This document shows, in pieces, positions 12,961 to 56,821 of a stretch of 56,821 bases of DNA; within the stretch, counting starts at the first letter, position 1; every line of letters begins with the position of its first letter. Made by a program: the position numbers and the translations under genes. The notes under the pieces were generated by a model, which did not search any database, was not told where the DNA came from, and saw nothing but the letters and a program-made list of their open reading frames with translations. The stretch is from Nanobdellota archaeon (lineage in GTDB: Archaea > Nanobdellota > Nanobdellia > SCGC-AAA011-G17 > GW2011-AR17): positions 1-56,821 of the forward strand of contig JAHIMK010000069.1 in assembly GCA_018896675.1 (NCBI GenBank). The letters are read 5' to 3'.

Positions 12961-13009
12961 ATTTCACCTCTTTCTTACTTTTATTAAAGGCAATAGGATT
13001 ATAAAAAGA

Positions 13010-14342: not shown

Positions 14343-14517
14343 TTAAATAAAAAGCCTTAGAAGATATTTATTTATATGTAATAATTAACTAGTAGTTAAA
14401 TGATTGGACTAAAGAAATAAGAGCAAAATATGACGGTTCTTTATTTGATTCTTATTAACTACAGTCGCGAAAAGTTTAAATATTCATCTGTCTCATCATT
14501 AGACACGAATTATAAAA

Positions 14518-15354: not shown

Positions 15355-15356
15355 TT

Positions 15357-15911: not shown

Positions 15912-15987
15912 ATTAATTATTTATAGCTAAGAATTTTTAAAGCTTTTGAAAGTAAGGTTTAAATAATTTAAAATAAGAATAATATTC

Positions 15988-40763: not shown

Positions 40764-40787
40764 ACTTAAACTTAAAATAGAATAAAA

Positions 40788-42347: not shown

Positions 42348-42500
42348 GTTATTTAAGCTTAATTTTTGATATATAAATATGTCGCTCTATTAATAAGAAT
42401 TAAAGTTATAATTGCATAGAAATATAGTGGGAACTTGCTATCCTGAATATCTCTAGAGCTTCCTGCATTGAATCAATTATCTTAAAATGCTATGAACTAT

Positions 42501-43345: not shown

Positions 43346-43489
43346 TTTTGGAATTAATTTAGGGTTATTAATAAAAATAACCCAAGTAAAATTGGAGATA
43401 TTTCATAAAAAGTGGAAATTTCTTATGATTTATTCCTATCCCATCAAGGAATAAAGGCGTTTTGCACATAAATTAGGTCTAGAAAGGCT

Positions 43490-44908: not shown

Positions 44909-44922
44909 GAAAGGCTTATATA
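44909..44922 (+). promoter_or_regulatory. BRE-like GAAAGG plus TATA (CTTATATA) about 29 nt upstream of the radical SAM gene
   Basis: The purine-rich element coincides with the right copy of the IS target duplication. Confidence 0.45.
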
Positions 44923-44950
44923 CAAGTTATCATTCAAGAATAGTAATAAA

Positions 44951-46255
44951 ATGGCATTAAAAGCTCCAATATCCGCTCAAATTGAGCTAACAATCAATTG
45001 TAACCAGCTATGTGGACATTGTTATAACTTTTGGAGATATCAAACAACTGGTCAAAAATATCAAAAAGAAGATAGAACTTTACTACCTGAAATTATAAAA
45101 AGAACAATTGAAGCAGAAGTGCTACACGTAGTTCTAACAGGAGGAGAACCACTTCTTTACTCTAAAGACACAGCACGATATATAAAACAATTAAGGGACA
45201 GCAACGTAGCAGTCGGACTAAACACAAATCTGTCCTTACTAACTCAAGAAAAAGAGAACATTCTAACAACTGCTGGATTGCAAGGAGTTTTAACTAGTCT
45301 AACAAGTTATGATCCAGAAACACACCACCAAATAACAAACTCAAAAAATACCCATAGTAAAACATTAAGAGCAATAGAATCATTAACAAGCAAAGGTTAT
45401 TTTGTAGCAGTTAATATGGTTGTGAGTCAACAAAACAAAGATCATGTATACCCAACAGGAAAATTAGTGCATCAACTAGGGGCTACAGCATTTTGCGCAA
45501 CCAAAATGACACCAAGCCCAGCAGGGGGCCAAGCACATCTAGAGCAAACACTCAACAAACAACAAACCAAACAAATGCTAGAAGACCTATTAAAAGTAGA
45601 AGAAGAAACAGGACTAGACGTCACAACATTAAATCCGATACCCTTATGTTTTACACCAGACATTGAACGTTATCAACATATTCTCAATAAAAACTGTTCA
45701 GCAGGAAAAACTAGTGTAGGAATAAGTACTGCAGGAGAAGTAAGAGCTTGTCAACATTGCGATCAAAAGTACGGAAACATCTTGCTTGAACCATTACAAG
45801 ACATTTGGAAAAGAATGGAAGAATGGAGAGACCACTCACTACTACCTGAAATATGCAAAAACTGCGAAGGACTACGAGACTGTGGAGGAGGATGCAGAGA
45901 AAGCGCCAAAGCACATAATGGTAGCCGGAACAAATCAGATGCATTAGTAACTGGAAAATACAAAAAACCAGCATCAACTAAAGAAAAAGACTTACTAGGC
46001 AAAACAATGCCGTTAAGAGTAAGCAAAAACTTAACATACCGATTAGAAGAAGAGGGAGTCGTTCTATACAAAACAACTCGAAATTTTACAATAGTTGACA
46101 ATGAAACATTCAAAGTTATAACAGCATTGCAAGGGGAAAAGTTTACAATAAACCAACTAGAGCGACACCTAAACACGCCAATGCAACTAATAATCACACA
46201 TTTACACAAAAAAAAGGTAATAATCGGAGGAAATAAAAAATGGCAAAAAAGCTAG
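44951..46255 (+). CDS. Radical SAM/SPASM peptide maturase with C-terminal PqqD-like (RRE) extension
   Basis: CNQLCGHC (CX3CX2C, C17/C21/C24). SPASM CSAGKTSVGISTAGEVRAC (CX12GX4C) and CKNCEGLRDCGGGC (CX2CX5CX3C). C-terminal VVLYKTTRNFTIVDNETFKVITALQGEKFTINQLERHL resembles PqqD/RRE. Confidence 0.85.
   Translation: MALKAPISAQIELTINCNQLCGHCYNFWRYQTTGQKYQKEDRTLLPEIIKRTIEAEVLHVVLTGGEPLLYSKDTARYIKQLRDSNVAVGLNTNLSLLTQEKENILTTAGLQGVLTSLTSYDPETHHQITNSKNTHSKTLRAIESLTSKGYFVAVNMVVSQQNKDHVYPTGKLVHQLGATAFCATKMTPSPAGGQAHLEQTLNKQQTKQMLEDLLKVEEETGLDVTTLNPIPLCFTPDIERYQHILNKNCSAGKTSVGISTAGEVRACQHCDQKYGNILLEPLQDIWKRMEEWRDHSLLPEICKNCEGLRDCGGGCRESAKAHNGSRNKSDALVTGKYKKPASTKEKDLLGKTMPLRVSKNLTYRLEEEGVVLYKTTRNFTIVDNETFKVITALQGEKFTINQLERHLNTPMQLIITHLHKKKVIIGGNKKWQKS
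45999..46021 (+). repeat. 23-nt exact direct repeat, copy 2, inside the radical SAM gene between SPASM and RRE-like regions
   Basis: gcaaaacaatgccgttaagagta is identical to 42643-42665. Confidence 0.9.
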
Positions 46256-46425
46256 AAGACATACCAAAAGAGGAAAAAGGAAACCTGCAAGACAAATTGT
46301 CAGAAATAGGAAGTGACTACACACCAAAAATAAAAATAGGTTCTAAAATAAGCACAGATTATGGAGACAACTGCGATTGCGATTGCAATTGTGACTGCGA
46401 TGCAACCTGTGATTTTTATGACTAA
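46240..46425 (+). CDS. Candidate RiPP precursor peptide with C-terminal (Cys-Asp/Asn) repeat core
   Basis: 61 aa, charged leader, core DNCDCDCNCDCDATCDFYD with six Cys each followed by D/N. 16-nt overlap with the maturase gene. Confidence 0.6.
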   Translation: MAKKLEDIPKEEKGNLQDKLSEIGSDYTPKIKIGSKISTDYGDNCDCDCNCDCDATCDFYD

Positions 46426-46464
46426 AAACTTTGATAGGGGCAAAATGCTCCCATTTTTATTATT

Positions 46465-47001
46465 ATGATATCACAAGTTGAAGTAACAAAAGAAATAGAA
46501 GATTTTGCTAGAGGCATCACTGGCAAAGGCTCTGAACTCTCTAAAAACATAGGCAGAAAGATCCTTAGTGTTACCAAGAAAATTGAACTACCTAATGAAG
46601 AAGAGAAGAAGATGCGTTGGAAACGTACTGCCACTCAAATTTTGAAAGATGGATGGGTTGTTAAAGGAAAAAGCTGCACAGACATCACAGTTCTATTCAT
46701 TGCTGTTGCTAAAGCCAAGGGAATAAAAGCAATATTTGTAAAACTATACTCTATTAAACGACAAATGCTTCATGCAGCTGTTGAATTACCTGGTGAGAAT
46801 AGCATCTTAGATGCAACTACTGGAAGAAGAGATAACTCTTCAAATGAAATTCTTTTTGACGAATACAAAGTCTACAAAAAAGGAAGAGATAGTTGGGATA
46901 TAGGGTTAAGTGGTGTTGAAGATATGCCTTCAGTAATGGAAGAAATAGGTAAAAAGATTGACGCTGATAAAAGTGCAAAACCCATAATTGCACATAAATA
47001 G
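46465..47001 (+). CDS. Transglutaminase-like cysteine peptidase fold protein
   Basis: KGKSCTDITVLFIAVAKAKGI ... HAAVEL ... LDATTG, the Cys-His-Asp order typical of the transglutaminase-like superfamily. Confidence 0.55.
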   Translation: MISQVEVTKEIEDFARGITGKGSELSKNIGRKILSVTKKIELPNEEEKKMRWKRTATQILKDGWVVKGKSCTDITVLFIAVAKAKGIKAIFVKLYSIKRQMLHAAVELPGENSILDATTGRRDNSSNEILFDEYKVYKKGRDSWDIGLSGVEDMPSVMEEIGKKIDADKSAKPIIAHK

Positions 47002-47043: not shown

Positions 47044-47113
47044 TAGGGGCTTTCTTTGTTAGCTTTGTTTTTGTTTGTTATTGGCAACTAGCTTTGTTAG
47101 CTGGGGCAAGTGT
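47044..47113 (+). repeat. Cassette-boundary repeat R1
   Basis: TAGGGGCTTTCTTTGTTAGCTTTGTTTTTGTTTGTTATTGGCAACTAGCTTTGTTAGCTGGGGCAAGTGT. Confidence 0.85.
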
Positions 47114-47147
47114 TGAAGAAAGGTATGTACAAATTGTACCTTTTCTT

Positions 47148-47312
47148 TTAGAAGTTTTCTTTGAATACTAACTGTACATTAACATCTGCTTGTAATAATG
47201 CTCTTTGTATGTCTCTAATTAGCTCATTTATTAGTTTTTCATCTACAAACATGCTTTTAGCTATCTTGCTTAATGTTGTTTTTAGACTTGATCCTAATTT
47301 CTCTAACACCAT
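47148..47312 (-). pseudogene. srp54: Isolated N-terminal fragment (54 codons) of an SRP54-like gene
   Basis: My translation is [54 protein letters not shown]. It matches the SRP54 N-domain start and has no GTPase domain after it. Confidence 0.6.
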
Positions 47313-47364
47313 AGTTTTGCCTTGTTTTAGAGTATTTATAAGGTTTATGTTTGTTTTGTTAATA

Positions 47365-47434
47365 TAGCCGCTTTCCTTGTTAGCTTTGTTTTACTTTGTG
47401 ATTAACAACTAGCTTTGTTAGCTGAGGCAAGTGT
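47365..47434 (+). repeat. Cassette-boundary repeat R2 (sub-family A)
   Basis: TAGCCGCTTTCCTTGTTAGCTTTGTTTTACTTTGTGATTAACAACTAGCTTTGTTAGCTGAGGCAAGTGT. Identical to R5 from position 7 (GCTTTCC) onward; the match also continues 6 nt past the repeat end (GTTATC vs GTTATT, first 5 identical). Confidence 0.9.
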
Positions 47435-47475
47435 GTTATCATTTTTCTGGCATCAGGAAAATGCTCTTTAATTTT

Positions 47476-48321
47476 TTATTTTTTCTTCAATAATTTCCTT
47501 TTTTCCTTTTCAGGCTTGTCAAGATAATTATCTTTGGAGATTACGCTTTTCCCTAATTTTTTCTCAATGTCTTTTCTTGTATTTCCTGCAATCTCTCCGC
47601 CTTCTTTTGCATCTTTCTTTAATTTTACAAATTCTTGTGAATCTCTTTCTTTAGTAATATCTGTTGTAGCTTTTTCCCCAACCATTGTTAGGATTAGCTC
47701 CCAGTCTGTCATATGATCTCTCAAATTTTGGTTTTTATTTTTTAGCTGTTTGAATTCTTTATATTCTCCAACTGTCTTTCCAAAACTAGCATTACTAATT
47801 TCGTTTGTTAAGATTGCAAACTCTTTTTCTGTTTCAACTTCCCTGTTTTTCCATTCATCTGTTAATTCCTCTCTTATTGCTATGCCTCTAACTCTCTTTT
47901 CAATCCATTCATTAGAATATCCTTTTTGCTTGTATAATTCTTTCATCCTTTTTTGTGCTAATTCTGGGTTATCTATCTCTTCAACCCTTTCATACCCTAC
48001 TTTTGCCAGCCATAATTTCATAGGCTCTGCTTTCTTTGATGAAATAGATTGAATAATTCTAAATGCTCCTTCAGTATTAGCACAATCACTTTCTCTCATT
48101 TTACCATCTTCAGCTTTCAATTTCAACCGTACGATTTTATCGTACACTTCAGACCCTTCTTCTTTTAGCTTAATTTTAAGATCTGACCAATATCTTTTAG
48201 GGATAGAACTTTCAGTAAGAATTTCTATTATATCAACAACAGAGAACCACCATTCTTCATTGTGCCATATTCTCCTTATGTTATTACCTTGAAAGACTAT
48301 GAGCTTATTTTTTGTTTTCAT
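47476..48321 (-). CDS. Bro-N domain protein with DinD-like C-terminal region
   Basis: IRRIWHNEEWWFSVVDIIEILTES (Bro-N). C-terminal KNQNLRDHMTDWELILT...GGEIAGNTRKDIEKKLG resembles the DinD C-terminus. Confidence 0.65.
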   Translation of the reverse strand: MKTKNKLIVFQGNNIRRIWHNEEWWFSVVDIIEILTESSIPKRYWSDLKIKLKEEGSEVYDKIVRLKLKAEDGKMRESDCANTEGAFRIIQSISSKKAEPMKLWLAKVGYERVEEIDNPELAQKRMKELYKQKGYSNEWIEKRVRGIAIREELTDEWKNREVETEKEFAILTNEISNASFGKTVGEYKEFKQLKNKNQNLRDHMTDWELILTMVGEKATTDITKERDSQEFVKLKKDAKEGGEIAGNTRKDIEKKLGKSVISKDNYLDKPEKEKRKLLKKK

Positions 48322-48429
48322 TAAGAATTAACTATTTTCTTTTTATTTATAAATTCTGTGTGGATAGTTGTCAAGTGGCAAATGGAGTGCATATTTACGG
48401 GTTTTTGAACAGATTTTCAGTTTGGTTTA
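48322..48429 (-). promoter_or_regulatory. 108-nt conserved cassette 5' module with palindromic TATA (ATTTATAAAT), copy 1; contains an inverted copy of the dif-like core at 48401-48425
   Basis: Near-identical to 50679-50786. TATA at 48345-48354 lies 24-33 nt upstream of ATG 48321. Confidence 0.6.
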
Positions 48430-48453
48430 TAGAGGCTTTCTTTGTTAGCTTTG
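48430..48453 (+). repeat. Cassette-boundary repeat R3 (5' half only)
   Basis: TAGAGGCTTTCTTTGTTAGCTTTG, then unrelated sequence. Confidence 0.7.
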
Positions 48454-48490
48454 GGTTAAATTAATAAACTTCTTTTTTAATTATTAAATC

Positions 48491-48955
48491 ATGGAAATAA
48501 AATTAAGGAAATATAGAGAAAAAGATTTAGAAAGGCATTTAGAATTATTCTTAATGAATGGAATTTATAAAAAAATAAATGAAAAAATAAAAAATCAAGA
48601 AAAAATATGGTTAAAGAAAGTAATCCAAAATTATGAGGGAGAAAAACCTGAATTTTTCACTATAGCTATAAATTTAGATAATAAATTAATAGGCAATTTG
48701 GTGGCTGAAAAAATTGATTATAAGAATAAAACTTTAGAGGTTGGATTTTGGATAGGCAAAGATTATTGGGGTAAAGGGGTTGCAACAAAGGCATTGAATC
48801 TTTTTTTGAAAATGATTATAAAAAAGTTTAATCCTAAAAAAATTATTGCACATCATAAAAAAGGTAATTTTGCTTCTGGAAGAGTTTTAGAGAAAGCTGG
48901 TTTTAAGTTTGAAATTGAGAAAAAAGGGATGAAAACTTATAATATTATGTTGTAG
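48491..48955 (+). CDS. GNAT-family N-acetyltransferase (RimJ/RimL-like)
   Basis: EVGFWIGKDYWGKGVATKALNLFL acetyl-CoA motif. The stop TAG is the first triplet of repeat R4. Confidence 0.8.
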   Translation: MEIKLRKYREKDLERHLELFLMNGIYKKINEKIKNQEKIWLKKVIQNYEGEKPEFFTIAINLDNKLIGNLVAEKIDYKNKTLEVGFWIGKDYWGKGVATKALNLFLKMIIKKFNPKKIIAHHKKGNFASGRVLEKAGFKFEIEKKGMKTYNIML

Positions 48956-49020
48956 CCGCTTTCTTTGTTAGCTTTGTTTTACTTTCTTATCAACAACTAG
49001 CTTTGTTAGCTTAGGCAAGT
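48953..49020 (+). repeat. Cassette-boundary repeat R4 (sub-family A)
   Basis: TAGCCGCTTTCTTTGTTAGCTTTGTTTTACTTTCTTATCAACAACTAGCTTTGTTAGCTTAGGCAAGT. Confidence 0.9.
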
Positions 49021-49892
49021 TAAAGTTTTTCTAATAGATTTAATGCTTCCTTGTCAAACTTTGAGAAAGCAAACCATTTCTTCCCCAAATCTTTTAATGA
49101 AGCTCCAAAATGATAAACTTCTTTGTTATCGATTATCATAAACCGGTCATGGGATTTATTGAATTCTTTGATTTCAATTTTTTGGTATTGGGAATTAAAT
49201 TTGTTTAAATCTAATTGTAATTGTTTTGTAATTTCTTTTGTATAGATTATGACTTTAACATTTTCCTTCTTTTTGGAAAACAATGTCAAAACTGAATCGT
49301 CAACATAATTATCAATTAAAGTGATTGATTGATTTGCATTTCTTATTAAATCTGAAACAAAAGTGTAAGCATCAAATATCTGCCCATTAAAGAATATTCC
49401 CTGTTTTGGCTTTATTTGTTTTTGATCTATAGCATTGAATATTTTTTCAAAATTTTTGTCATGTTGAATTTGTTTTCTTTCAATATTATCTACTCTAATA
49501 AATAATCCTTCATTTTTAGCTAAAAAGTGCTTCATAGCAACAAATGCACTCATAATTTCAATACTTACTTTTATTGCAATATCGCTTTTGAGAATACCTG
49601 AGAGCATAGCTACACCTTCTTCTGTAAATGCATAAGGTAAATATCTTCTTCCACCATATTTGGATCTTGAGGTGCCATTTTGGAACCTCAAGTTTTCTAA
49701 CTCAGATTCTGTTAATTGAAACATGAAATTTTCTGGAAATCTCTCAATATTTCTCTTTACAGCTTTATTAAGTTGTTTTGTTGGAACTCTATAAAGCTCT
49801 GCTAAATCAGCATCAAGCATTACCTGCAGTCCTCTGATTGTGTAGATCTTATTTTTTATATTTTGTTTGTCTAAAACTATTAATTTTTTCAT
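49020..49892 (-). CDS. ORF6N-domain DNA-binding protein with PLD-like C-terminal domain
   Basis: IYTIRGLQVMLDADLAELY...RFPENFMFQLT (ORF6N). C-terminal SHDRFMIIDNKEVYHFGASLKDLGKKWFAFSKF. Confidence 0.65.
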   Translation of the reverse strand: MKKLIVLDKQNIKNKIYTIRGLQVMLDADLAELYRVPTKQLNKAVKRNIERFPENFMFQLTESELENLRFQNGTSRSKYGGRRYLPYAFTEEGVAMLSGILKSDIAIKVSIEIMSAFVAMKHFLAKNEGLFIRVDNIERKQIQHDKNFEKIFNAIDQKQIKPKQGIFFNGQIFDAYTFVSDLIRNANQSITLIDNYVDDSVLTLFSKKKENVKVIIYTKEITKQLQLDLNKFNSQYQKIEIKEFNKSHDRFMIIDNKEVYHFGASLKDLGKKWFAFSKFDKEALNLLEKL

Positions 49893-49970
49893 TTCTGTTT
49901 CTATAAAATAATGATTTATAATGTTAACTTAGAAAAAACCTTAGTTTTTTTGGTAAAGTTGTAAAATTTG

Positions 49971-50040
49971 TAGAGGCTTTCCTTGTTAGCTTTGTTTTAC
50001 TTTGTGATTAACAACTAGCTTTGTTAGCTGAGGCAAGTGT
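49971..50040 (+). repeat. Cassette-boundary repeat R5 (sub-family A)
   Basis: TAGAGGCTTTCCTTGTTAGCTTTGTTTTACTTTGTGATTAACAACTAGCTTTGTTAGCTGAGGCAAGTGT. Confidence 0.9.
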
Positions 50041-50041
50041 G

Positions 50042-50404
50042 TTATTTTAATTTTTTTATTTCCTTTTTTTTCATATGTTTTATAATCTGAATTTTATTAT
50101 CATATTCTTCATCAATTTCATAATTGATATCTTCGTTATAAGAACAATAAATATATCCTAATTTTTTGGTAAGAAACCATAGGATTTGTTCATAAAATGC
50201 CGGCAAACATTCAGTAGAATATCCCTCTCCAAGATATTCTTTACCACATTTAATTTTTTTACCAATTAAACTTTCAGCAAACTGTTTTGCTTTAATTAAA
50301 TCTTTTTCAAAATTTTCCTCCTCTACCTTTTTACCTATTAGGACTTCTTTATGTTCTCCTTCATACCAAATATATTCTATTAAAAAAATATTAAAATCTA
50401 CCAT
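50042..50404 (-). CDS. Hypothetical protein
   Basis: 120-aa ORF starting 1 nt after the DinD-like stop. No motif recognised. Confidence 0.4.
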   Translation of the reverse strand: MVDFNIFLIEYIWYEGEHKEVLIGKKVEEENFEKDLIKAKQFAESLIGKKIKCGKEYLGEGYSTECLPAFYEQILWFLTKKLGYIYCSYNEDINYEIDEEYDNKIQIIKHMKKKEIKKLK

Positions 50405-50405
50405 T

Positions 50406-50678
50406 TTAATTTGCCTCCTGTTTTAAAATTACTATTTCTCTTTCAGCCCCTTTAGGCATCTCTATCGTTTTCCTGACATCAGGAAAATGATCTAAAACAT
50501 TAAATCCTGCGTTTTTACACGATTCTTTAGCTTTTTCAATAACTTTTGCAAAATTTTCCCATTTAGAATATCCTAAAAGTAATTGTAAATCTCTAGCATA
50601 CCAAAATTCAATACCTTCTATTTCATTTGCATAATCTTCAAATGTTTTTCTTAATTTAGATATTATTTCTTTTTTCAT
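50406..50678 (-). CDS. dinD: DinD-like (DNA-damage-inducible protein D) N-terminal domain only, probably truncated
   Basis: IEFWYARDLQLLLGYSKWENFAKVIEKAKESCKNAGFNVLDHF matches the DinD N-terminus. It is 90 aa, against ~270 aa for E. coli DinD as I recall it. Confidence 0.6.
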   Translation of the reverse strand: MKKEIISKLRKTFEDYANEIEGIEFWYARDLQLLLGYSKWENFAKVIEKAKESCKNAGFNVLDHFPDVRKTIEMPKGAEREIVILKQEAN

Positions 50679-50786
50679 TAAGAATTAACTATTTTCTTTT
50701 TATTTATAAACTCTGTGTGGATACTTGTCAAGTGGCAAATGGAGTGCATATTTTCGGGTTTTTGTTTATATTTTCAGTTTGGTTTG
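50679..50786 (-). promoter_or_regulatory. 108-nt conserved cassette 5' module with palindromic TATA, copy 2
   Basis: Aligns base-for-base with 48322-48429, apart from a few substitutions and a degenerated core-site segment. Confidence 0.6.
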
Positions 50787-50856
50787 TAGCCGCTTTCTTT
50801 GTTAGCTTTGTTTCTCTTTCTTATCAACAACTAGCTTTGTTAGCAGGGGCAAGTGT
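50787..50856 (+). repeat. Cassette-boundary repeat R6 (sub-family A)
   Basis: TAGCCGCTTTCTTTGTTAGCTTTGTTTCTCTTTCTTATCAACAACTAGCTTTGTTAGCAGGGGCAAGTGT. Confidence 0.9.
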
Positions 50857-51444
50857 GTCAATATTGAATAATCTTGCTTTTATATCATTTTCAATGTTTA
50901 TTGTGCCTTTTAAGATATAATGTGCTTCTTCTTCCTCAAAGAATTCAATATTAAATTTGTTATCCTTAATATTTACTGCTAGAATATTATCCTGAATAGA
51001 GATAGAAGGGAGTATAACAAAATCTGTGTTTTTTGTTGCAAACCAAGCGCCTTGCTGGTTTGGGAAAGAAGATATTGAACTATTATATAATTTTTTAGGC
51101 AGAAATAATATTGCTTTTTTCCATTCTCTAATACCTCTCCATCTCTCTATTGATGCAGAAATTGCTAAACCATTCTGTAAAGAGAGAGGAATGGATCCTG
51201 CTTCAATAGCATAATTTTTAGTATATTGATATAATGCTTCTGCAATCTCCTCTTTTACTTTTAATTTAATTAATTCTAAAAGATATTTTGTTCCATCAGC
51301 TTTAGGATGTTTTTTTATAAATTCAGCAGCATCTTTAGGTATTGCAGTTTCAAAGCTTAATTTTACTTCTTTTTTTATGTTATCCTTATTAGGCAGTTGT
51401 TTTAAGAATTCTATTTCTTTACAAGTGTTTATTATTAAATCCAT
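50824..51444 (-). CDS. Hypothetical protein; 3' end reads into repeat R6
   Basis: 206-aa ORF. The last residues TLAPANKASC are encoded by the repeat. Confidence 0.4.
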   Translation of the reverse strand: MDLIINTCKEIEFLKQLPNKDNIKKEVKLSFETAIPKDAAEFIKKHPKADGTKYLLELIKLKVKEEIAEALYQYTKNYAIEAGSIPLSLQNGLAISASIERWRGIREWKKAILFLPKKLYNSSISSFPNQQGAWFATKNTDFVILPSISIQDNILAVNIKDNKFNIEFFEEEEAHYILKGTINIENDIKARLFNIDTLAPANKASC

Positions 51445-51498
51445 TCCATCTTTGGTTAATATAAGAGATATTTATACTTTACTTTATTTTTTAGTTTG

Positions 51499-51567
51499 TA
51501 GAGGCTTTGTTTGTTAGCTTTATTTCTCTTTCTTATCAACAACTAGCTTTGTTTAGCTGGGGCAAGT
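51499..51567 (+). repeat. Cassette-boundary repeat R7 (sub-family A)
   Basis: TAGAGGCTTTGTTTGTTAGCTTTATTTCTCTTTCTTATCAACAACTAGCTTTGTTTAGCTGGGGCAAGT. Confidence 0.9.
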
Positions 51568-51752
51568 TCTAATGGCATTCTCTTTCCTAGCTTTAGAGAG
51601 CCATCTTTGTTTATACTTTTTATTTCTATGCTACAACACTCTGGATCGTCCCAGAAATAGCTTTTACAATTAGGGCAAGCTTTTGGCATTCTTTCTGTTC
51701 TTGTCCTCCAATCATATTCGCATAACTTACAGATGCATAGTTTTCCTTTCAT
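51543..51752 (-). CDS. Small zinc-ribbon protein
   Basis: CKLC...CPNC four-Cys ribbon. The C-terminal tail is encoded by repeat R7. A near-identical partial copy sits at 56671-56821. Confidence 0.5.
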   Translation of the reverse strand: MKGKLCICKLCEYDWRTRTERMPKACPNCKSYFWDDPECCSIEIKSINKDGSLKLGKRMPLELAPAKQS

Positions 51753-51901
51753 TTTGTTTTTTTTAGTATTTTCTTTTATAAGATTTATGATGTTGAAGTT
51801 TAGGTTGAAGTAAGTTTTTTTTTCATTAATTTAAGAAAAGAATTATGGCTACTATAAAATTTAAAGATGTTTTAAAGTTTGCAGATAATGTTGTTTATTT
51901 G

Positions 51902-51972
51902 TAGAAGCTTTCTTTGTTTTTCTTTATTTTGTTTTTAATTGTTTTATTGGTTTGTTTAGCAGAGGTAAGTGT
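51902..51972 (+). repeat. Cassette-boundary repeat R8 (sub-family B)
   Basis: TAGAAGCTTTCTTTGTTTTTCTTTATTTTGTTTTTAATTGTTTTATTGGTTTGTTTAGCAGAGGTAAGTGT. Confidence 0.85.
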
Positions 51973-52086
51973 AAATAGGAAGGACAGGTATAATTTGTAT
52001 CTCTCCTTTGTTTAATTTTTCATTTCAGTTGTACGATTTTTTCGTACACCTAAATTTATTTCAATTGGTTACAATTTGTAACTATT

Positions 52087-52515
52087 TCATAAATTTTCTT
52101 TTTCACTTACTTCCCATCTCCCTCCTTTATCCGGGCCAATTCTTTTTATTATCTTTTTTAGTTTTAATTTCATTAAATTCCATTCAACTCCTCTCCTGCT
52201 GAGTCCTGTAATTTTTTCTAATTCTATTTGAGTGATTTTGTTATTTTCTTTTATCGCTTTAATTATTTTCTCCACAGTTTTCTCCACAGTTTTCTCCACA
52301 GTTTTCACCCTAGTTTCTTGATTTACAGGGACATTTTCATCTCTTTTTTTTCTTTTAAAAGTAGTAGAAAAAAATCCTGCAAATATCTCAAAGTTAACAT
52401 TAGGTTCCAAAGACTTGATTTTTCCAATGCCTGTCCCCCACTTCTCAACTAAATGAATTCTATGAAATATGTCTGCAATCAGTGAATTTCTTCTCCTAGA
52501 TATTTTCTTATTCAA
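52087..52515 (-). pseudogene. C-terminal remnant of a HATPase_c_4/wHTH (RecG-like putative DNA-binding) protein
   Basis: SLIADIFHRIHLVEKWGTGIGKI plus a C-terminal wHTH. There is no N-terminal AlbA_2/ATPase part. Only a TTG start is in frame; an ATG lies out of frame behind an A8 tract. Confidence 0.5.
52266..52306 (-). repeat. 12-nt tandem repeat (ttttctccacag x3 plus a partial copy) encoding TVEKTVEKTVEK
   Basis: Directly visible perfect copies. Confidence 0.85.
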
Positions 52516-52609
52516 GATGTCTTTTTTTTCATCTTTGTTTCTTTAGAATTGCTTTTTATAATGTTAATTGAGAAAAAACACTTGATTTTTCATTGATGTT
52601 GGAAATTTG

Positions 52610-52679
52610 TAGAGGCTTACTTTAGTTTAATTATTTCTCTTTCTTATCAACAACTAACTTTATTCGCTTAGGTAAGTGT
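52610..52679 (+). repeat. Cassette-boundary repeat R9 (divergent sub-family A)
   Basis: TAGAGGCTTACTTTAGTTTAATTATTTCTCTTTCTTATCAACAACTAACTTTATTCGCTTAGGTAAGTGT. Confidence 0.8.
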
Positions 52680-52732
52680 GTTATCCGGTATTCTTGAAAA
52701 ACTTTATATAATCTAATTAAAAAGTTAAATTC

Positions 52733-53650
52733 ATGAAAGAATTTGTATCTACGAAGAAGCAATTAGAAAATGTTAAAGAATTTAAAGAAAATCTTCATAA
52801 AAAAGGAGAAGAAAAAACTTTCGATAATTTGATGGAGGTTATGGTTGGCCATATAACTAATCTAAAAAATATTATTATTGCTGGAAAAAAAGTAAAAGAT
52901 TCAGAAATATTTAAAACACATTATGCTTATTTTAAAGAAATAAATAAAAAATGCATTAAACCTATAAATCTTCTTAAAGCATTTGATTTTCAAGATGATG
53001 AACTTGAATTTATAGAAAACAATCCCTCACCAAAAGGAAAAGAATTAGAAAAAATTCAAGAAATGTTTAAAAAAAGATTAAGTTTAGATGGTCCTTGTAT
53101 TCCTGTTGAACTCCTTTCAAAACTTAGTGATAAATTAAATGAAGATTCAAATTCAATATTAGTTAATAGTTTCTCATATTCTAATGAAGAAATGAATAAA
53201 ATTTTAAATGGAATGAACGACACCTTTAAAATGATTATTCGCAATGAAACAAATAAAGACCCTATCTTGAAAGATTATATTCTTCTTAATTTATACAAAG
53301 ATGCTTTTGAACTTTACTTAAAAGTTATAAAGGAACTTTATGGTAAATTAAAAAATATAAAGATAGATAAAATTAGAAATAAAGAATTATATGCCTATTT
53401 TGATGAAAATTATCCTTTAATTTTTGAATCAACATCTAACATCTTAAGAAATGATATATCTCATTTAAATTATGACATTAGACAAAATTATAGTTCTAAA
53501 CAAATCGAAACTGAAAGAGATATCATATTAATGAAGTTTCTAACTGCAATGATTGTAAAATTTGAAGTAGTTTTAGAAGAACTATTAGTTTATTCTCTTG
53601 AAAAAATAGAAAAATTAAAAAAATCTAAGTTTAAACACAAAAAACCTTAA
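52733..53650 (+). CDS. Hypothetical helical protein with a possible HEPN-type Rx4H motif
   Basis: 305-aa ORF. C-terminal SNILRNDISHLNY contains R-N-D-I-S-H. Assignment is speculative. Confidence 0.4.
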   Translation: MKEFVSTKKQLENVKEFKENLHKKGEEKTFDNLMEVMVGHITNLKNIIIAGKKVKDSEIFKTHYAYFKEINKKCIKPINLLKAFDFQDDELEFIENNPSPKGKELEKIQEMFKKRLSLDGPCIPVELLSKLSDKLNEDSNSILVNSFSYSNEEMNKILNGMNDTFKMIIRNETNKDPILKDYILLNLYKDAFELYLKVIKELYGKLKNIKIDKIRNKELYAYFDENYPLIFESTSNILRNDISHLNYDIRQNYSSKQIETERDIILMKFLTAMIVKFEVVLEELLVYSLEKIEKLKKSKFKHKKP

Positions 53651-53675
53651 ATAATCAAAAATCTAAATAAAAGCT

Positions 53676-53747
53676 ATGCTATACTCACATTCAAGACTAA
53701 GCAGCTTCAAACAATGCCCTTTAAAATTCAATTATAGATACCTATAG
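53676..53747 (+). pseudogene. 23-codon N-terminal fragment of a Cas4/RecB-like PD-(D/E)XK nuclease
   Basis: My translation is MLYSHSRLSSFKQCPLKFNYRYL*. It resembles the YSxSxLxxFxxCPxxFxxxY start of PDDEXK_1 nucleases. Confidence 0.4.
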
Positions 53748-53785
53748 TTTTCTGTGATTAATGTTATGTTCTTGTTAATATATTG

Positions 53786-53854
53786 TAGAGGCTTTGCTTA
53801 TTTTGTTTAATTTGTTTTTAATTGTTTTAATTAATTACTAGCAGAGGCAAGTAT
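53786..53854 (+). repeat. Cassette-boundary repeat R10 (sub-family B)
   Basis: TAGAGGCTTTGCTTATTTTGTTTAATTTGTTTTTAATTGTTTTAATTAATTACTAGCAGAGGCAAGTAT. Confidence 0.8.
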
Positions 53855-53889
53855 AAATCACATAAAAATTTATATATTAGGAAAGGATA

Positions 53890-54330
53890 TTGCTCCATAT
53901 GGAAATCTATAGCGAAAAAACAATTCTGGTTCCAGAAAGGATTAATAATATATTTGCTCCTGGCATTAACATGATTATTGGTCCGAATTGCTCTGGTAAA
54001 ACAATATTTTTAAGACAAATTCTTTTAGGCAAGCAGATTCATCAGGTAAGTGCTGATTGTGATCCAAGGTTGTCTAAAGGAGAAAAGTATTTTCTTGATG
54101 TTGAAAAGGCTATATCAGAGTCTGGAAGCAGTTCTTCAATCATTCTTGATGATTTTGGTAGTCGTCTTACAATGGAAAATATTGCTAAACTAATGGAAAA
54201 AGCTAAGGAAAAGAATGTTCAAGTTATAGCTACTGTTAAGGATAAAGATATCTTGAAATTTGCAGACAAGGCTATTTTTCTGGAATGTGGACAGATAAAA
54301 CTTATGCATGAGTTTAATAAGAATCCATAA
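53890..54330 (+). CDS. Minimal P-loop ATPase (ABC/SMC-like Walker A and B only); start may be ATG 53899
   Basis: IIGPNCSGKTIFLRQIL Walker A and SSIILDDFGS Walker B. 146 aa. Confidence 0.55.
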   Translation: MLHMEIYSEKTILVPERINNIFAPGINMIIGPNCSGKTIFLRQILLGKQIHQVSADCDPRLSKGEKYFLDVEKAISESGSSSSIILDDFGSRLTMENIAKLMEKAKEKNVQVIATVKDKDILKFADKAIFLECGQIKLMHEFNKNP

Positions 54331-54351
54331 GCCTTGTTATTAATTGAGAAG

Positions 54352-54391
54352 GAGGCCGCTTTCTTTGTTTTTCTTTATTTTGTTTTTAATT
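54352..54391 (+). repeat. Cassette-boundary repeat R11 (sub-family B, 5' part only)
   Basis: GAGGCCGCTTTCTTTGTTTTTCTTTATTTTGTTTTTAATT matches R8 up to the stop codon of the minus-strand gene. Confidence 0.75.
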
Positions 54392-55001
54392 ACAGCCTAG
54401 CTATCTTTCCAGCATCTGTAAGCTCCAAACCATCTTCTGTCCGTATCAAGTCCATATCTTTTAATTCATCTATGGCACGATACAGCATTGCTCTAGACAA
54501 AGAAACTTTCTCAGCCAATTCGACTATACTATCAAACTTTCCTGTTTCAACCTTTTCTAATACCATCTTCTGACTTTCAGTTAACCGAAAACTCAATCTA
54601 GGCAAATAAATAACACTTTTCTTATCTTCTTCAGGGTTATAAGCAACTTTCTTAACACGTTCATGCCTGGCATAAGCAGCAAACAACAAACCAATGGCTT
54701 TAGTTTTTCTGCCAGAAGTTATGTTTACATAAATAGTATCATCTTTTGGTTGCATATCTATTATCTCAACACACTTTGTAGCTATTTTTACTACATCATA
54801 CATTTCTGTTTTGACAACCTTTATATCAATTACTTTACCTAAAGAATCTTGTAACAACTTAAGGCTTTTACTTTGTTCTTTATCAGGTTCAGGATCTAAT
54901 AAAACAATAAGCCTATCTGCTCCAAGACGAGTGACAGCTAATAATACTGGCTCAGGATGATACAATGTGGCTATAAGTACCTTTTTCCCCTTTTTTTCCA
55001 T
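54390..55001 (-). CDS. Csa3-like CARF-domain plus wHTH transcriptional regulator
   Basis: N-terminal Rossmann-like VLIATLYHPEPVLLAV...RLIVLLD, YVNITSGRKT loop, and C-terminal wHTH SIVELAEKVSLSRAMLYRAIDELKDMDLI. Confidence 0.6.
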   Translation of the reverse strand: MEKKGKKVLIATLYHPEPVLLAVTRLGADRLIVLLDPEPDKEQSKSLKLLQDSLGKVIDIKVVKTEMYDVVKIATKCVEIIDMQPKDDTIYVNITSGRKTKAIGLLFAAYARHERVKKVAYNPEEDKKSVIYLPRLSFRLTESQKMVLEKVETGKFDSIVELAEKVSLSRAMLYRAIDELKDMDLIRTEDGLELTDAGKIARL

Positions 55002-55145
55002 AAGATTATTACTAACTTTTAGATTTAAATCCTTTTCGTTTTAGTTTACAATTAGATTAAATTTAAGATTATCTATTTATTATAATATTTATCTACTATT
55101 GAGTAGAAAGGTTTATATAGTGGTTGCTTTCTAAAAAAGTATAAA

Positions 55146-56615
55146 ATGAAATTCAACCAATTACTGGAGACAGCAAACATAAAGTCTAATGACAAAGATA
55201 TGCTTTCATCCTTTTACACAGAGCTTGCTTCATCTAATCTTCCCACCTATAAAAAACTGTTAGTATATGGTTGTAGTGGTTTTGGAAAGACAAAATTAAT
55301 CAAATCTTTGATAAGCAAAGCAAGAGTGCCAATTATTTATTATGGCTTTGAACCTGAAAAAGGATATACTCCTTGCAAAAATACTTTAGAACTTCTTAAG
55401 AAAGTAAAAGAAAGTAAAGAATGTATAATTTTTATAGACAACATTGAAGTTATAATGGCTAATCAGCAAGATTCTTCTTGTGGAAATATGGATGTGCAAG
55501 ATCAAAAATATTTATTTGAGATTTTCCATTTGGTTGAGACATCATCAAATAAGATTCTTATCTTTTCTACTGTAGCCAAATATGCTTTGCATTCATGCTT
55601 AATTGACAGAATAGATTTTTGTATAAAAATGGCTCCGCCTTTAAATAAAGCAAAACTAAATTTTATAAAAAAGAATCATCTTTGCAAATTATCAAAGAAT
55701 TTTATGGTTGTCTTGTGTGATAAAACTAGGGGTTATTCATATAGGGATATTGACAGTTTGATAAAACTATTAAATCCTATCAAGCAGAGTCTTTCACTTC
55801 AGGACATAAACGATATTGTATTAAAATTTATTCCGTCAGAACTTTCAAAATATACTCTTAGTTATGAAAAGGATTTAACTCTAAAAAATATGTCTTCTAG
55901 TAAAAATATCCAGGAAACTCTTAGAAAATCAGTTTTGCTTATAAAACAGAAAATATTGGTACAAAAATTAGGCATTAACATAAACAATTTTTTGTTTTTT
56001 TACGGCGAGCCGGGCACTGGAAAAACATATGCAGCCAGGGCTTTTGCAGGTGAAACAGGAATGCCTATTGTTACTATAAACTCGTCTAACATTTCTAGCA
56101 GGATGTCTTCGCCTTCAGAATTGCTTGGGCATATTATAGAACTTGGAACACGTTATGAAAACATGATATTTCTTTTTGATGAAGCTGAGAAGATTTTTGG
56201 GAGAAATACTATGGGTGAGGATGCTGAACTGCAGGGTGATTTGCAGAGTTATCTTGACGGTGTTGGTAATAAAGTTAAATCTACAATAATATTTACACTT
56301 AACAATGAGGCGAGGTTTGGTGAAGCTTTGAAAGATAGGTTTGTAATGGTAAAGTTTGAATTGCCTGACTTAAAAGAAAAAGTTAAATTTTTGAAAAGTA
56401 AGTGTGCTTCTGCTAAAGAGCATTTCTCTTTAAGCTTTAATATTGAATCCTTAGCTAAAATAATGGGTAAAGTAAGTTATAGGGTTTTGGGAAGAATATG
56501 GGATCATACACTTTTGAGGAATATCTCTCTTAATAAGAAATCATTGTCTATTGAAGATTTTAAGGAAACTATTAAGTCTTTTAAGATTAAGAAGGTAAAT
56601 ATGCTTACTGGGTAG
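55146..56615 (+). CDS. Tandem AAA+ ATPase (degenerate first module, canonical second module)
   Basis: Module 1 has YGCSGFGKT / IIFIDNIE. Module 2 has YGEPGTGKTYAARAFA / IFLFDEAEKIF. The stop TAG is the first triplet of repeat R12. Confidence 0.7.
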   Translation: MKFNQLLETANIKSNDKDMLSSFYTELASSNLPTYKKLLVYGCSGFGKTKLIKSLISKARVPIIYYGFEPEKGYTPCKNTLELLKKVKESKECIIFIDNIEVIMANQQDSSCGNMDVQDQKYLFEIFHLVETSSNKILIFSTVAKYALHSCLIDRIDFCIKMAPPLNKAKLNFIKKNHLCKLSKNFMVVLCDKTRGYSYRDIDSLIKLLNPIKQSLSLQDINDIVLKFIPSELSKYTLSYEKDLTLKNMSSSKNIQETLRKSVLLIKQKILVQKLGININNFLFFYGEPGTGKTYAARAFAGETGMPIVTINSSNISSRMSSPSELLGHIIELGTRYENMIFLFDEAEKIFGRNTMGEDAELQGDLQSYLDGVGNKVKSTIIFTLNNEARFGEALKDRFVMVKFELPDLKEKVKFLKSKCASAKEHFSLSFNIESLAKIMGKVSYRVLGRIWDHTLLRNISLNKKSLSIEDFKETIKSFKIKKVNMLTG

Positions 56616-56680
56616 AAGCTTTCTTTGTTAGCTTTGTTTTTGTTTTATATCAACAACTAGCTTTGTTCGCTTAGGCAAGT
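56613..56680 (+). repeat. Cassette-boundary repeat R12 (sub-family A)
   Basis: TAGAAGCTTTCTTTGTTAGCTTTGTTTTTGTTTTATATCAACAACTAGCTTTGTTCGCTTAGGCAAGT. Confidence 0.9.
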
Positions 56681-56821
56681 TCTAAGGGCATTCTCCTTCC
56701 TAGCTTTAGAGAGCCATCTTTGTTTATACTTTTTATTTCTATGCTACAACACTCTGGATCGTCCCAGAAATAGCTTTTACAATTAGGGCAAGCTTTTGGC
56801 ATTCTTTCTGTTCTTGTCCTC
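56671..56821 (-). CDS. Second copy of the small zinc-ribbon gene (3' part; runs off the window)
   Basis: 56681-56821 is near-identical to 51568-51708. The stop comes earlier (TAA in the repeat) than in copy 1. Confidence 0.5.
   Translation of the reverse strand, partial: RTRTERMPKACPNCKSYFWDDPECCSIEIKSINKDGSLKLGRRMPLELA

Follow-up and report, generated by a model that had tools for sequence, protein, structure and literature searches.

The region at 47-57 kb of the window, i.e., of the whole 56,821-nt stretch analysed here, is best explained as a chromosomal gene-cassette array, seen here in part, in a Woesearchaeales-type archaeon, one of the tiny symbiotic-type DPANN ('Nanoarchaeota'). The array looks like integron-style gene capture made from different parts, since its modules are present or absent between near-identical strains at a 20-base Xer-like site (core C); a strand-asymmetric, T/G-rich repeat of 66-69 nt (R, at 47044-56680) separates them. 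We tentatively propose, with a probability of about 0.45, that a Xer-type recombinase acting in trans inserts the cassettes at C, R being an accessory arm.

Fourteen copies of R were located:

47044-47111, plus strand: copy 1, A type, directly 3' of the transglutaminase-like gene
47365-47432, plus strand: copy 2, A type
48430-48455, plus strand: copy 3, left half only, breaking after GTTAGCTTTG
48953-49020, plus strand: copy 4, A type; its TAG is the GNAT stop codon, with the ORF6N stop at the other end
49971-50038, plus strand: copy 5, A type, 97% identical to copy 2
50787-50854, plus strand: copy 6, A type
51499-51567, plus strand: copy 7, A type
51902-51970, plus strand: copy 8, B type
52610-52677, plus strand: copy 9, diverged A type
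53786-53852, plus strand: copy 10, B type
54352-54392, plus strand: copy 11, B type, only its left two thirds present
56613-56680, plus strand: copy 12, A type; its TAG terminates the IetA-like AAA+ gene
8024-8089, minus strand: copy 13, opposite strand, within a mini-array
10905-10971, minus strand: copy 14, opposite strand, with core C 7 nt further on

The first twelve, spaced 321 to 2261 nt apart and all on the plus strand, lie where the original prediction had placed them; the last two are full copies that it had missed, and R is therefore not restricted to 47-57 kb. The left-end motif TAGNNGCTTTCYTTRTT (at most one mismatch) matches 13 times in the window versus 0.10 expected from dinucleotide shuffles. 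Several further features described from the sequence alone hold: the conserved termini of R; its A and B interior sub-families (B at 51902, 53786 and 54352); the plus-strand ORFs that stop on its TAG (GNAT, 48491-48955; AAA+, 55146-56615) and the minus-strand ORFs ending at 49020, 50824 and 51543 that enter its other end; and a cassette present twice, the stretches 51553-51708 and 56666-56821 being 97% identical. It had been missed that most genes are read from the strand opposite to the T/G-rich one taken as 'top' (40 of 52 cassette ORFs, ~77%, are antisense to it). R has stop codons at both ends and T-tracts confined to one strand. It had been said not to be an attC hairpin, and folding agrees: in seven copies, neither strand folded better than shuffled sequence (z -0.6 to +1.25), and we found no hairpin, terminal inverted repeats or target-site duplication in R. 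Housekeeping sequence in the window (~40 kb) contains no R; the repeat is found only beside accessory genes, in line with the earlier view of a cassette-type array rather than a REP-like scatter.

The visible array comprises at least 12 modules and continues past the contig end; its cassettes are listed here after the gene block that precedes R copy 1:

44951-47001, plus strand: block of a radical-SAM/SPASM gene, a 61-aa ORF and a transglutaminase-like gene, sense-oriented and reaching to R copy 1
47148-47312, minus strand: srp54 5' fragment of 54 codons with its own TATA box; three copies in L020
47476-48321, minus strand: Bro-N protein; orthologous cassettes in L008, L013 and L020
48491-48955, plus strand: GNAT acetyltransferase
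49020-49892, minus strand: ORF6N (KilA-N/Bro-like) protein; orthologues in L012, L013, L017 and L020
50042-50678, minus strand: 120-aa ORF and truncated second Bro-N gene, the latter full length in L012 and L020
50824-51444, minus strand: 206-aa ORF, no family
51543-51752, minus strand: 69-aa ORF; a second copy starts at 56666 and runs off the window
52087-52515, minus strand: HATPase_c_4/wHTH fragment; full AlbA_2-type genes in L012 and L013
52733-53650, plus strand: 305-aa ORF, no family; 40% identical relative in L011
53890-54330, plus strand: short ABC/SMC-type ATPase fragment
54390-56615, both strands: CARF-wHTH (Csa3-like, minus) and IetA-like AAA+ ATPase (plus)

Across the arrays, modules typically hold toxin-antitoxin pairs, defence ATPases and nucleases, Bro-N/KilA-N/ORF6N regulators and gene fragments, and most have their own archaeal promoter. 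No recombinase gene was found among the cassettes examined.

At least 10 further contigs from related Woesearchaeales-type archaea also bear R arrays, among them JAHILT010000033 (at least 12 copies) and the metagenome contigs L011, L012, L013, L016, L019, L020 and L023, while L009, L010 and L018 carry single copies. They occupy at least three different chromosomal contexts, with a median R spacing of 1012 nt and mostly one or two ORFs per interval. Cassette order and content in relatives, which the original prediction had named as a check, indeed vary: the same modules recur in other orders and copy numbers, e.g., [SRP54N][Bro-N] in the window versus [Bro-N][SRP54N] in L020. Flanks are reassorted at R, 54 pairs of copies having a common left flank and different right flanks and 5 pairs the reverse. 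Copies of R are about as similar within a locus (identity 0.726) as between loci (0.703), which would fit a shared cassette pool. Some copies are truncated at scattered positions, and scraps of former neighbours remain attached to others, such as 13 nt of a GNAT-like 3' end beside R1449 of L020; these remnants seem to point to imprecise events as well.

The second element, core C, is a 20-nt dyad (TGAA-AATCTG-TTCAnAAAAC) with inverted arms around a 6-nt spacer; when extended, the arms are complementary at 8-9 of 11 positions. Judged from sequence, this architecture matches the 11-6-11 layout of XerA dif sites (PMC2958812, PMC3646895). C occurs 5 times in the window versus 0.03 expected, and 18 times across the loci compared. 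Four of the sites in the window delimit a mini-array at 7-11 kb; they are listed with its cassettes, followed by the fifth site and a variant, both in the main array:

7029-7048, plus strand: core C (TGAAAATCTGTTCAGAAAAC), just past the stop of a 402-aa surface-protein gene; left junction of the mini-array
7070-7879, minus strand: cassette 1, PIN_2 toxin and two RHH_12 genes
8254-8273, plus strand: core C, internal junction; a 196-nt copy of the 402-aa gene 3' end, 86% identical, lies before it
8344-9674, plus strand: cassette 2, MNT nucleotidyltransferase and HEPN pair
9844-9863, plus strand: core C, internal junction
9905-10885, plus strand: cassette 3, DUF1016/YhcG PD-(D/E)XK nuclease, split ORF
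10979-10998, plus strand: core C (one mismatch), right junction; downstream sequence 99.9% identical to the cassette-less L031 and L032
48400-48419, minus strand: core C, adjoining R copy 3, upstream of the Bro-N gene
50758-50776, minus strand: variant C' (TGAAAATATAAACAAAAAC), adjoining R copy 6, without the right dyad arm

The mini-array is polymorphic. L031 and L032, two independent assemblies 99.9% identical to window 10975-17367, carry the 3' end of the 402-aa gene, then C, then the downstream gene, and no cassettes. Their left flank is found in the window at 7029 and their right flank at 10979, and AAAATCTGTTCAGAAAAC is common to all three junctions (window left, window right and cassette-less), which reads as an attB/attL/attR pattern. 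A segment of cassettes is thus missing exactly at C, although its size (2.7 or 3.9 kb) and history are uncertain, because the left flank of L031 is only 95% identical to the window and this contig ends 117 nt from C. Likewise, the 99.6% identity that L012 and L017 share over 2.1 kb breaks off exactly at the left edge of C, and L024 has, just past EF-2, a 0.5-kb module between the copies of a 26-nt direct repeat that includes C. By these comparisons, the strain-varying junction is the 20-nt core beside R and not R itself; R alone is probably not the crossover site. Flanks are reassorted at C as well: in an alignment of its occurrences (A2), C is invariant, with four unrelated kinds of left flank and several promoter families on the right. 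Where present, C or C' lies 5-9 nt beyond the TAG end of R, in a single orientation (14 of 53 copies versus ~0.5 expected). Only 26% of R copies have such a neighbour, and the main array keeps one intact C and one C'.

Upstream of the main array lie two further features:

42501-43345, minus strand: XerA-type tyrosine recombinase, frameshifted in the window at 42656-42659
43490-44908, plus strand: IS66-family insertion sequence of 1.4 kb (transposase 43578-44900) with 20-nt terminal inverted repeats and an 8-bp target duplication, GAAAGGCT

Two 1-nt insertions break the recombinase ORF in the window; the 99.9%-identical contigs L003 and L004 carry it intact (280 aa), and a population variant, L014, has most of it deleted. 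It aligns collinearly with XerA, which supports the earlier statement that it does not contain the IntI insertion (~45 aa). Relatives 55-86% identical to it occur in many Woesearchaeota/Nanoarchaeota MAGs, in non-syntenic neighbourhoods; no arrays were found beside them in these MAGs, and no homologue was found on ~100 kb of other R-bearing contigs. The intI-attI-cassette layout originally suggested is not supported, since the gene is frameshifted, an IS66 element and the radical-SAM cluster stand between it and the array, and its relatives elsewhere are not next to arrays.

Based on these features, we infer that cassettes would enter and leave as circles by a tyrosine-recombinase crossover at C, the cassette-side site consisting of R plus C and the chromosomal site of C alone. 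The enzyme could be the host XerA-type recombinase acting in trans, as bacterial IMEX exploit XerCD. R, which contributes its terminal stop codons and the T-tracts of a single strand, might then serve as the element-side accessory arm and as an insulator, and later R-R exchanges may reorder the modules.

The main competing account, rated less likely, sees the modules as standardised transcription units that homologous recombination or unequal crossing-over has shuffled, with no dedicated site-specific recombinase. C and its TATA module would be a shared operator/promoter and R a shared 3' insulator/terminator, and arrays would grow, shrink and reorder via common parts of 45-100 nt, imported DNA included. 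C indeed precedes TATA-like boxes by ~20 nt and start codons by 50-75 nt, which is also the place of a transcription-factor operator; copies of R are 70-97% identical and able to pair, and have the T-tracts and terminal stop codons noted above; and the 45-196 nt shared by the mini-array junction repeats suffice for homologous recombination to yield the same insertions and deletions. The truncated copies and scraps, the other arrays without a linked recombinase, and a linkage scan that found no sharp crossover point within R are compatible with it too. The scarcity of C beside R, and a recombinase unlinked to arrays and frameshifted here, also weigh against insertion at C, and circular junctions were not observed. 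Against shuffling of this kind stands, however, the invariance of C next to a promoter diverged to ~65-70% identity and a wholly unrelated other flank. Operators are usually more degenerate than that. Junctions J1 and J4, moreover, bracket the polymorphic segment with only 18-20 nt in common; a common 68-nt element on unrelated genes in both orientations is left unexplained; and R is as diverse within a locus as between loci, which argues against homogenisation by local recombination.

It is improbable that the arrays are decayed remains of successive plasmid or virus integrations at one attachment site, with integrases lost and R a duplicated att. Proteins typical of viruses and plasmids (Bro-N, KilA-N, ORF6N) abound in the cassettes, and host gene ends (srp54 5', 402-aa gene 3') are duplicated in the arrays, as at tRNA-type att sites. 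Yet the modules measure only 0.3-2.3 kb, no integrase, replication or capsid gene was found among the ORFs examined in ~100 kb of arrays, the chromosomal contexts are several, and searches with R, C and the Bro-N protein in 2.9 million viral contigs gave no match. Still less credible is R as a selfish or structural REP- or MITE-like intergenic repeat spread in AT-rich islands, with incidental modularity. It is a short, abundant, non-coding sequence at which MAG assemblies break, but it has none of the structural hallmarks sought above, is missing from housekeeping intergenic regions of the window, always stands between accessory modules with biased ORF orientation, and the single available empty site is without whole cassettes as well as R, i.e., not a simple R insertion. 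A classical integron or CALIN (attC sites clustered without an integrase), in which IntI would recombine unusual attC sites as folded single strands, can practically be dismissed. The short-cassette array, the conserved ends and variable centre of the repeat, and VchIntIA (an integron integrase) as the closest solved structure by sequence speak for it, but both defining features tested, R folding and the IntI domain, contradict it, and the archaeal integrons described to date show canonical attC folds and carry IntI domains (PMC9668308).

The resemblance to sedentary chromosomal integrons and CALINs, including the archaeal integrons of Ghaly et al. 2022 (PMC9668308), is nonetheless extensive: a chromosomal location, modules of 0.3-2 kb, a directional separating repeat with conserved ends and variable centre that often provides the cassette ORF stop codon, cargo of mainly toxin-antitoxin, acetyltransferase, defence and unknown genes, and the same cassettes in other order and copy number in related genomes. 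Unlike in integrons, R shows neither inverted symmetry nor a predicted single-strand fold, and the recombinase is without the IntI domain and, in other genomes, does not neighbour arrays. Neither an attI nor a Pc was identified here. Further differences are that most cassettes have their own promoter, that 77% of genes are antisense to the T/G strand, and that a separate 20-nt dyad core marks the strain-variable junction. Bacterial IMEX likewise have no recombinase of their own, the candidate enzyme being a host Xer-family protein; their attachment site is also Xer-type, a 6-nt spacer lying between two arms of which one is often degenerate, and successive insertions yield tandem arrays parted by hybrid sites. 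Here, by contrast, an archaeal host has a single XerA-type enzyme, single-gene cassettes take the place of phages or islands, C lies in several chromosomal contexts with only a candidate dif relation, and R (68 nt) is without counterpart; no archaeal IMEX was found in the literature searched. ColE1 cer and pSC101 psi also combine a short Xer core with a longer one-sided accessory sequence (PMC5357621, PMC11705084), but their accessory regions, unlike R, are ~180 bp long and act in plasmid resolution with PepA, ArgR or ArcA bound. Acinetobacter pdif modules (PMC5357621, PMC11705084) are similarly small gene modules with Xer-type bounds in varied contexts; their sites are inverted pairs on plasmids, whereas C forms direct repeats on the chromosome.

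We tentatively class the locus among the site-specific gene-cassette arrays. One of its components is a T/G-rich repeat (hereafter R), and the twelve copies that the original prediction had placed on the plus strand between 47044 and 56680 are all present, at distances of 321-2261 nt from one another, with a unit of 66-69 nt when measured from its TAG to the final AAGT. The conserved termini also stand (left end TTTRTAGNNGCTTTCTTT, right end AGCNGAGGCAAGT), as does the division of the interior into sub-families, and the left-end motif matches 13 times in the window versus 0.10 matches expected by chance. As had been read from the sequence, the TAG of R provides the stop codon of two plus-strand ORFs, three minus-strand ORFs end inside the other end of the repeat, and one cassette is present in two copies. 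A profile search of the window added two full copies on the opposite strand (8024-8089 and 10905-10971), which bracket toxin-antitoxin and nuclease genes and are surrounded by nested direct repeats; we call this region, at about 7-11 kb, the mini-array. A 276-aa plus-strand ORF at 7152-7982 is spurious; minus-strand genes are called there on contigs nearly identical to the window, as follows:

7070-7471, minus strand: PIN_2 gene
7472-7714, minus strand: RHH_12 gene
7715-7879, minus strand: RHH_12 gene

Beyond the window, R was sought by an exact-pattern scan of species-representative genomes and by a separate scan of JGI metagenomes. At least 12 copies occur on the 22-kb contig JAHILT010000033.1 (loci L006-L008), together with a Bro-N cassette of 73% nucleotide identity to that of the window; its MAG is labelled 'Patescibacteria group bacterium', and the contig is probably archaeal and mis-binned. 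The scan of species-representative genomes also returned one copy at the end of a Woesearchaeota contig. Metagenomic contigs hold further arrays (L012 with seven copies, L013 with seven in mixed orientation, L020 with ten, and L023, L011, L016 and L019) as well as single copies (L010 and L018), while the pattern matches in L005, L015 and L022 were set aside, being partial and in unrelated organisms of higher GC. At the single-copy loci, R lies directly after the 3' end of a gene, between convergent genes; no empty sites were found for the single cassettes of L010 and L018, the flanking genes having no homologues in the compared loci. The median spacing of R is 1012 nt, mostly with one or two ORFs per interval, and 40 of 52 ORFs run antisense to the T/G-rich strand. 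Cargo across the R loci includes Bro-N, KilA-N and ORF6N proteins, MNT/HEPN and PIN/RHH toxin-antitoxin pairs, Dam and MmeI-type restriction-modification genes, an SMC-like ATPase with a HEAT-repeat partner, AlbA_2/HATPase_c_4 proteins, DUF1016 nucleases, a CARF-wHTH regulator, an IetA-like AAA+ ATPase, GNAT acetyltransferases, and gene fragments.

The proposed tandem array of short cassettes is borne out, and its order and content vary between related genomes: the window and L020 carry cassettes in different order, some cassettes are present more than once, and the flanks are reassorted. An srp54 5' fragment precedes Bro-N in the window, whereas in L020 (~86% identical) Bro-N comes first. This srp54 cassette, a 54-codon 5' fragment with its own TATA box (47148-47312), is found once in the window and three times in L020 (1240-1398, 2591-2752 and 5925-6086; 82-90% nucleotide identity to the window copy by BLAST). 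Likewise, 3' fragments of the gene for a 402-aa surface protein are duplicated in the mini-array (8095-8290 and 9806-9840), and it seems that host genes bordering an array have their ends copied as it grows. Comparing the flanks of 53 distinct full R copies, we found the same left flank with a different right flank in 54 pairs, and the reverse in five. Identity among R copies is 0.726 within a locus versus 0.703 between loci, a near-equal diversity that fits a shared cassette pool better than local homogenisation. Linkage with the flanks revealed no sharp crossover breakpoint inside R. Truncated copies were tried as crossover locators and rejected, their breakpoints being scattered, which suggests that imprecise events also shape the arrays. 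Exact-protein look-ups of ScpA, GNAT, a 206-aa ORF and ORF6N returned no record, and thus no alternative contexts for main-array cassettes. In L013, a methyltransferase gene lies between two inverted R copies (9815-11089) whose inward-facing flanks are homologous too (~35 nt), pointing to either an inversion or a composite unit.

When the nested direct repeats of the mini-array were aligned with the sequences upstream of the Bro-N and ORF6N cassettes, a second component emerged that is invariant, a 20-nt core that we call C (TGAAAATCTGTTCAnAAAAC); the window has five occurrences of it (0.03 expected), and the compared loci have 18. It is a dyad of TGAA and TTCA around a 6-nt spacer, and these inner arms are invariant in ten contexts. 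The chromosomal form, AGTAATCTGAA-AATCTG-TTCAGAAAACT, has complementary bases at 9 of 11 arm positions, and the outer left arm is degenerate in R-linked copies. The dif sites of Xer recombinases share this 11-6-11 layout, and XerA cleaves them at the spacer borders (PMC2958812, PMC3646895). C is found in several contexts, among them after the 402-aa gene and after EF-2 in the contig L024. The sequence on its left belongs to one of four unrelated kinds (the surface-protein gene's 3' end, either the TAG end or the opposite end of R, or something else), and to its right is one of several promoter families. In 14 of the 53 R copies, C or a variant of it, C', lies 5-9 nt past the TAG end in one fixed orientation, with ~0.5 expected by chance, and the fullest cassettes read, in gene orientation, C, promoter, gene(s) and R. 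The core is dimorphic: C (…AATCTGTTCA…) and C' (…AATATAACCA…) differ by a block change of five of eight bases that removes the right dyad arm, with the sequence on both sides unchanged. C' sites are found at 50758-50776 and at nine R-adjacent positions in L008, L011, L012 and L020, and could be disarmed sites or a second specificity.

Strain-level differences fall at C. Two contigs, L031 (from an ENA assembly) and L032 (assembled by Logan from a different run), match window positions 10975-17367 at 99.9% identity; directly upstream, both have the surface-protein gene's 3' end and then C, and the mini-array cassettes are absent. This empty allele has AAAATCTGTTCAGAAAAC in common with the window junctions at 7029 (left) and 10979 (right), the shared core being 18 nt, and the flanks match as those of attB, attL and attR would, the left flank of L031 being just 95% identical. 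L031 stops 117 nt away from the core, and its left flank matches the resident gene at 95% identity and the internal fragment at 92%, so that the segment it lacks would measure 2.7-3.9 kb. The 3' end of the 402-aa gene forms the chromosomal side of the junction. Over 2.1 kb, L012 and L017 share 99.6% identity, up to a point of divergence that coincides exactly with the left edge of C; the adjoining R is oppositely oriented in the two. L024 has, just after EF-2, a 0.5-kb module flanked by a 26-nt direct repeat that includes C, and R is absent there. Both C sites of L024 and all four of the mini-array (7029, 8254, 9844 and 10979) are direct repeats, unlike pdif modules, which are bounded by two inverted Xer sites. 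Short contigs 99.9-100% identical to parts of the window were also found in the MAGs GCA_022013275.1, GCA_018895155.1 and GCA_018898035.1 and in Logan assemblies, and several of them end at or near R or C.

We propose, with a probability of roughly 45%, that cassettes would enter and leave through a tyrosine-recombinase crossover at C, that R would serve as an accessory arm and insulator on the element side, and that exchanges at R would afterwards shuffle the modules. Rather unlikely, yet the strongest competitor, is a scheme in which C and its TATA module form a shared operator/promoter and R a shared 3' element, both shuffled by ordinary homologous recombination. The position of C ~20 nt upstream of TATA boxes, the 45-196 nt repeats at junctions and the imprecise remnants agree with it, but C is invariant beside a diverged promoter and unrelated left flanks, and the overlap at polymorphic junctions is just 18-20 nt. 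Even then, standardised 5' and 3' modules on dozens of unrelated genes would need explaining. It is improbable that the arrays are the decayed remains of elements that integrated in tandem and formerly carried an integrase of their own; Pfam scans of a subset of all ORFs detected no recombinase in cassette ORFs. R, C and the Bro-N protein had no match in a viral contig collection, on which ground a viral or plasmid origin was rejected.

As a candidate for the enzyme of the proposed crossover at C, the window encodes a tyrosine recombinase (42501-43345, minus strand) that lacks, as predicted, the IntI-specific domain: ~45 residues are missing relative to VchIntIA (2a3v), residues 180-198 of the recombinase spanning IntI residues 175-238, and it aligns with XerA of T. 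acidophilum (5hxy) in one collinear stretch. Its best-scoring family is archaeal XerA (NF040815; 217.0 bits against an equivalog cut-off of 220, profile positions 6-256 of 263), whereas the integron integrase model TIGR02249 gives 206.7 bits against a cut-off of 265, and matches in two pieces only. Two 1-nt insertions break the gene in the window; it is intact in the contigs L003 and L004, and the L003 protein has the GLR, GKGNKDR, HPHTLRH and GH...Y motifs. Homologues of 55-86% identity are found throughout Woesearchaeota and Nanoarchaeota MAGs, as expected for the XerA of the lineage.

The intI-attI-cassette layout of the original prediction did not hold, since two blocks separate the recombinase from the first R:

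43490-44908: IS66-family element of 1.4 kb with a single 440-aa transposase, 20-nt terminal inverted repeats (GTAACTGTTTAGCTACTTAG) and an 8-bp target duplication (GAAAGGCT)
44951-47001: radical-SAM/SPASM enzyme, 61-aa ORF and transglutaminase-like protein (a 2.1-kb block)

Moreover, the recombinase homologues in L024, L026 and L027 have no adjoining array, and other arrays have no recombinase. The neighbourhoods of these three close homologues (SepF and EF-2; MCM; CBS and SecDF) contain no array, save one degenerate R-like stretch at 157-225 of L024 (E = 0.06), and linkage of recombinase and array was rejected on this basis. A tblastn search found no recombinase homologue in the R-bearing contigs elsewhere. 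Since homologues lack arrays and other R-bearing contigs lack the homologue, the adjacency seen in the window is probably not functional. Action of the recombinase on C in trans is nonetheless plausible, because C has the architecture of a Xer site and the cassettes examined encode no recombinase.

Repeats of the REP or MITE type are a very improbable explanation of R, which has neither hairpin nor terminal inverted repeat and has zero copies in the ~40 kb of housekeeping sequence of the window. The window contains no tRNA gene and no Rfam family, and an origin of R from a known RNA or tRNA fragment was therefore rejected; so was a conserved coding tail, as the 12 copies translated in three frames show no consistently open frame and no shared stop. 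A classical integron can practically be dismissed, as the locus fails both defining tests, the IntI domain and the attC fold. Indeed, when seven R copies were folded as DNA on both strands, none folded better than shuffled sequence (Z-scores of -0.6 to +1.25, minimum free energies of -0.5 to -6 kcal/mol), in agreement with the view that R is not an attC hairpin, and no inverted symmetry is conserved across the 53 aligned copies. A-type copies contain an internal palindrome (AACAA-CTAGCT-TTGTT), which was rejected as a core site because B-type copies and many others lack it. This locus stands apart from the archaeal integrons reported to date, which possess canonical attC folds and IntI domains (PMC9668308).

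In what it does, the array of R and C resembles a sedentary chromosomal integron, and in its possible mode of action it resembles IMEX elements and the cer/psi-type Xer sites with accessory sequences. IMEX integrate at the host dif through the host Xer proteins, and the likeness here is one of structural features: the cassette ORFs scanned encode no recombinase of their own, C is dif-like with inverted arms of ~11 bp around a 6-bp spacer, and the junctions are of the attB/attL/attR type. No description of archaeal IMEX or of such R arrays was found in the searchable literature. Integrons are the textbook route by which prokaryotes stockpile and reshuffle single genes, and are defined by one integrase clade and hairpin attC sites. 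We suggest tentatively, at well below even odds, that DPANN archaea (Woesearchaeales) have a functional analogue, in which promoter-bearing cassettes with a bipartite double-stranded site (the 68-nt asymmetric R and the 20-nt dif-like C) are inserted, excised and shuffled by the housekeeping XerA; this chromosomal gene-capture platform would have evolved independently of IntI and attC, and its cassettes would represent the first archaeal mobile elements to exploit Xer. If so, a Xer-type enzyme, together with a double-stranded dyad core and an accessory repeat that is asymmetric, would provide the capability of integrons from other parts, and Xer-hijacking mobile elements would extend to Archaea. 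This would also explain the turnover of defence and toxin-antitoxin genes in genome-reduced DPANN archaea, and the fragmentation of DPANN MAGs at such loci. R and C are two short motifs, searchable and directly testable in vitro with one small recombinase.

Several other features of the window deserve mention. Its upstream genes are archaeal (RPA-type Rep_fac-A, HerA, a TFE-alpha homologue, and the DRG and YGR210 GTPases), and its GC content is 24-35%. A 1939-aa Laminin_G_3/Ig-like surface protein followed by the 402-aa protein occupies 11-7026, and the C-terminus of the latter looks like a membrane anchor, with a hydrophobic stretch and RKKKK. The cumulative GC skew rises steadily to ~42 kb, then is flat and falling (about 40000-44000), a turn that coincides with the switch from mostly plus- to mostly minus-strand genes at the border of recombinase and array, and that is insufficient to call a replication terminus. 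The IS66-family element sits in a spacer of ~190 nt between the recombinase and the radical-SAM gene, and the block at 44951-47001 resembles a small peptide-maturation cluster of the RiPP type; as would be expected of a sense-oriented cassette, it ends at the first R.

Within the recombinase gene, the two frameshifting insertions produce a 26-mer (42643-42668) identical at 25 of 26 positions to 45999-46024 in the radical-SAM gene. The metagenome contig L014, a population variant, joins exactly these two 26-mers, so that 42669-46024 is deleted (the N-terminus of the recombinase, the IS66 element and most of the radical-SAM gene), and it also lacks 46059-46510. The frameshift of the window may have arisen as an artefact when assemblies of a mixed population were polished, or may reflect genuine gene conversion. 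On the antisense strand of the same ORF, a 17-mer at 42700-42716 (TAGCCGCTTTCTTTAAT, coding KKAAKK) matches the left end of R with one mismatch, and the equivalent spot in the 86%-identical homologue of L024 also matches R weakly. The att site of SSV-type archaeal integrases is located within their own integrase gene; the resemblance here is probably due to chance.

Short repeated motifs are also found in the main array. A 12-nt unit (TTTTCTCCACAG) is repeated four times in tandem at 52266-52313, inside a HATPase_c_4/wHTH fragment gene, and small palindromes recur in and between cassettes (47120-47143, 48133-48150 and 52031-52050). One of them, AAAGGTA-CAATTTGTACA-TACCTTT, follows the srp54 fragment and is also present in L020, and another, GTACGATTTT(A/T)TCGTAC, lies both inside the Bro-N gene and in the spacer after the eighth R copy.
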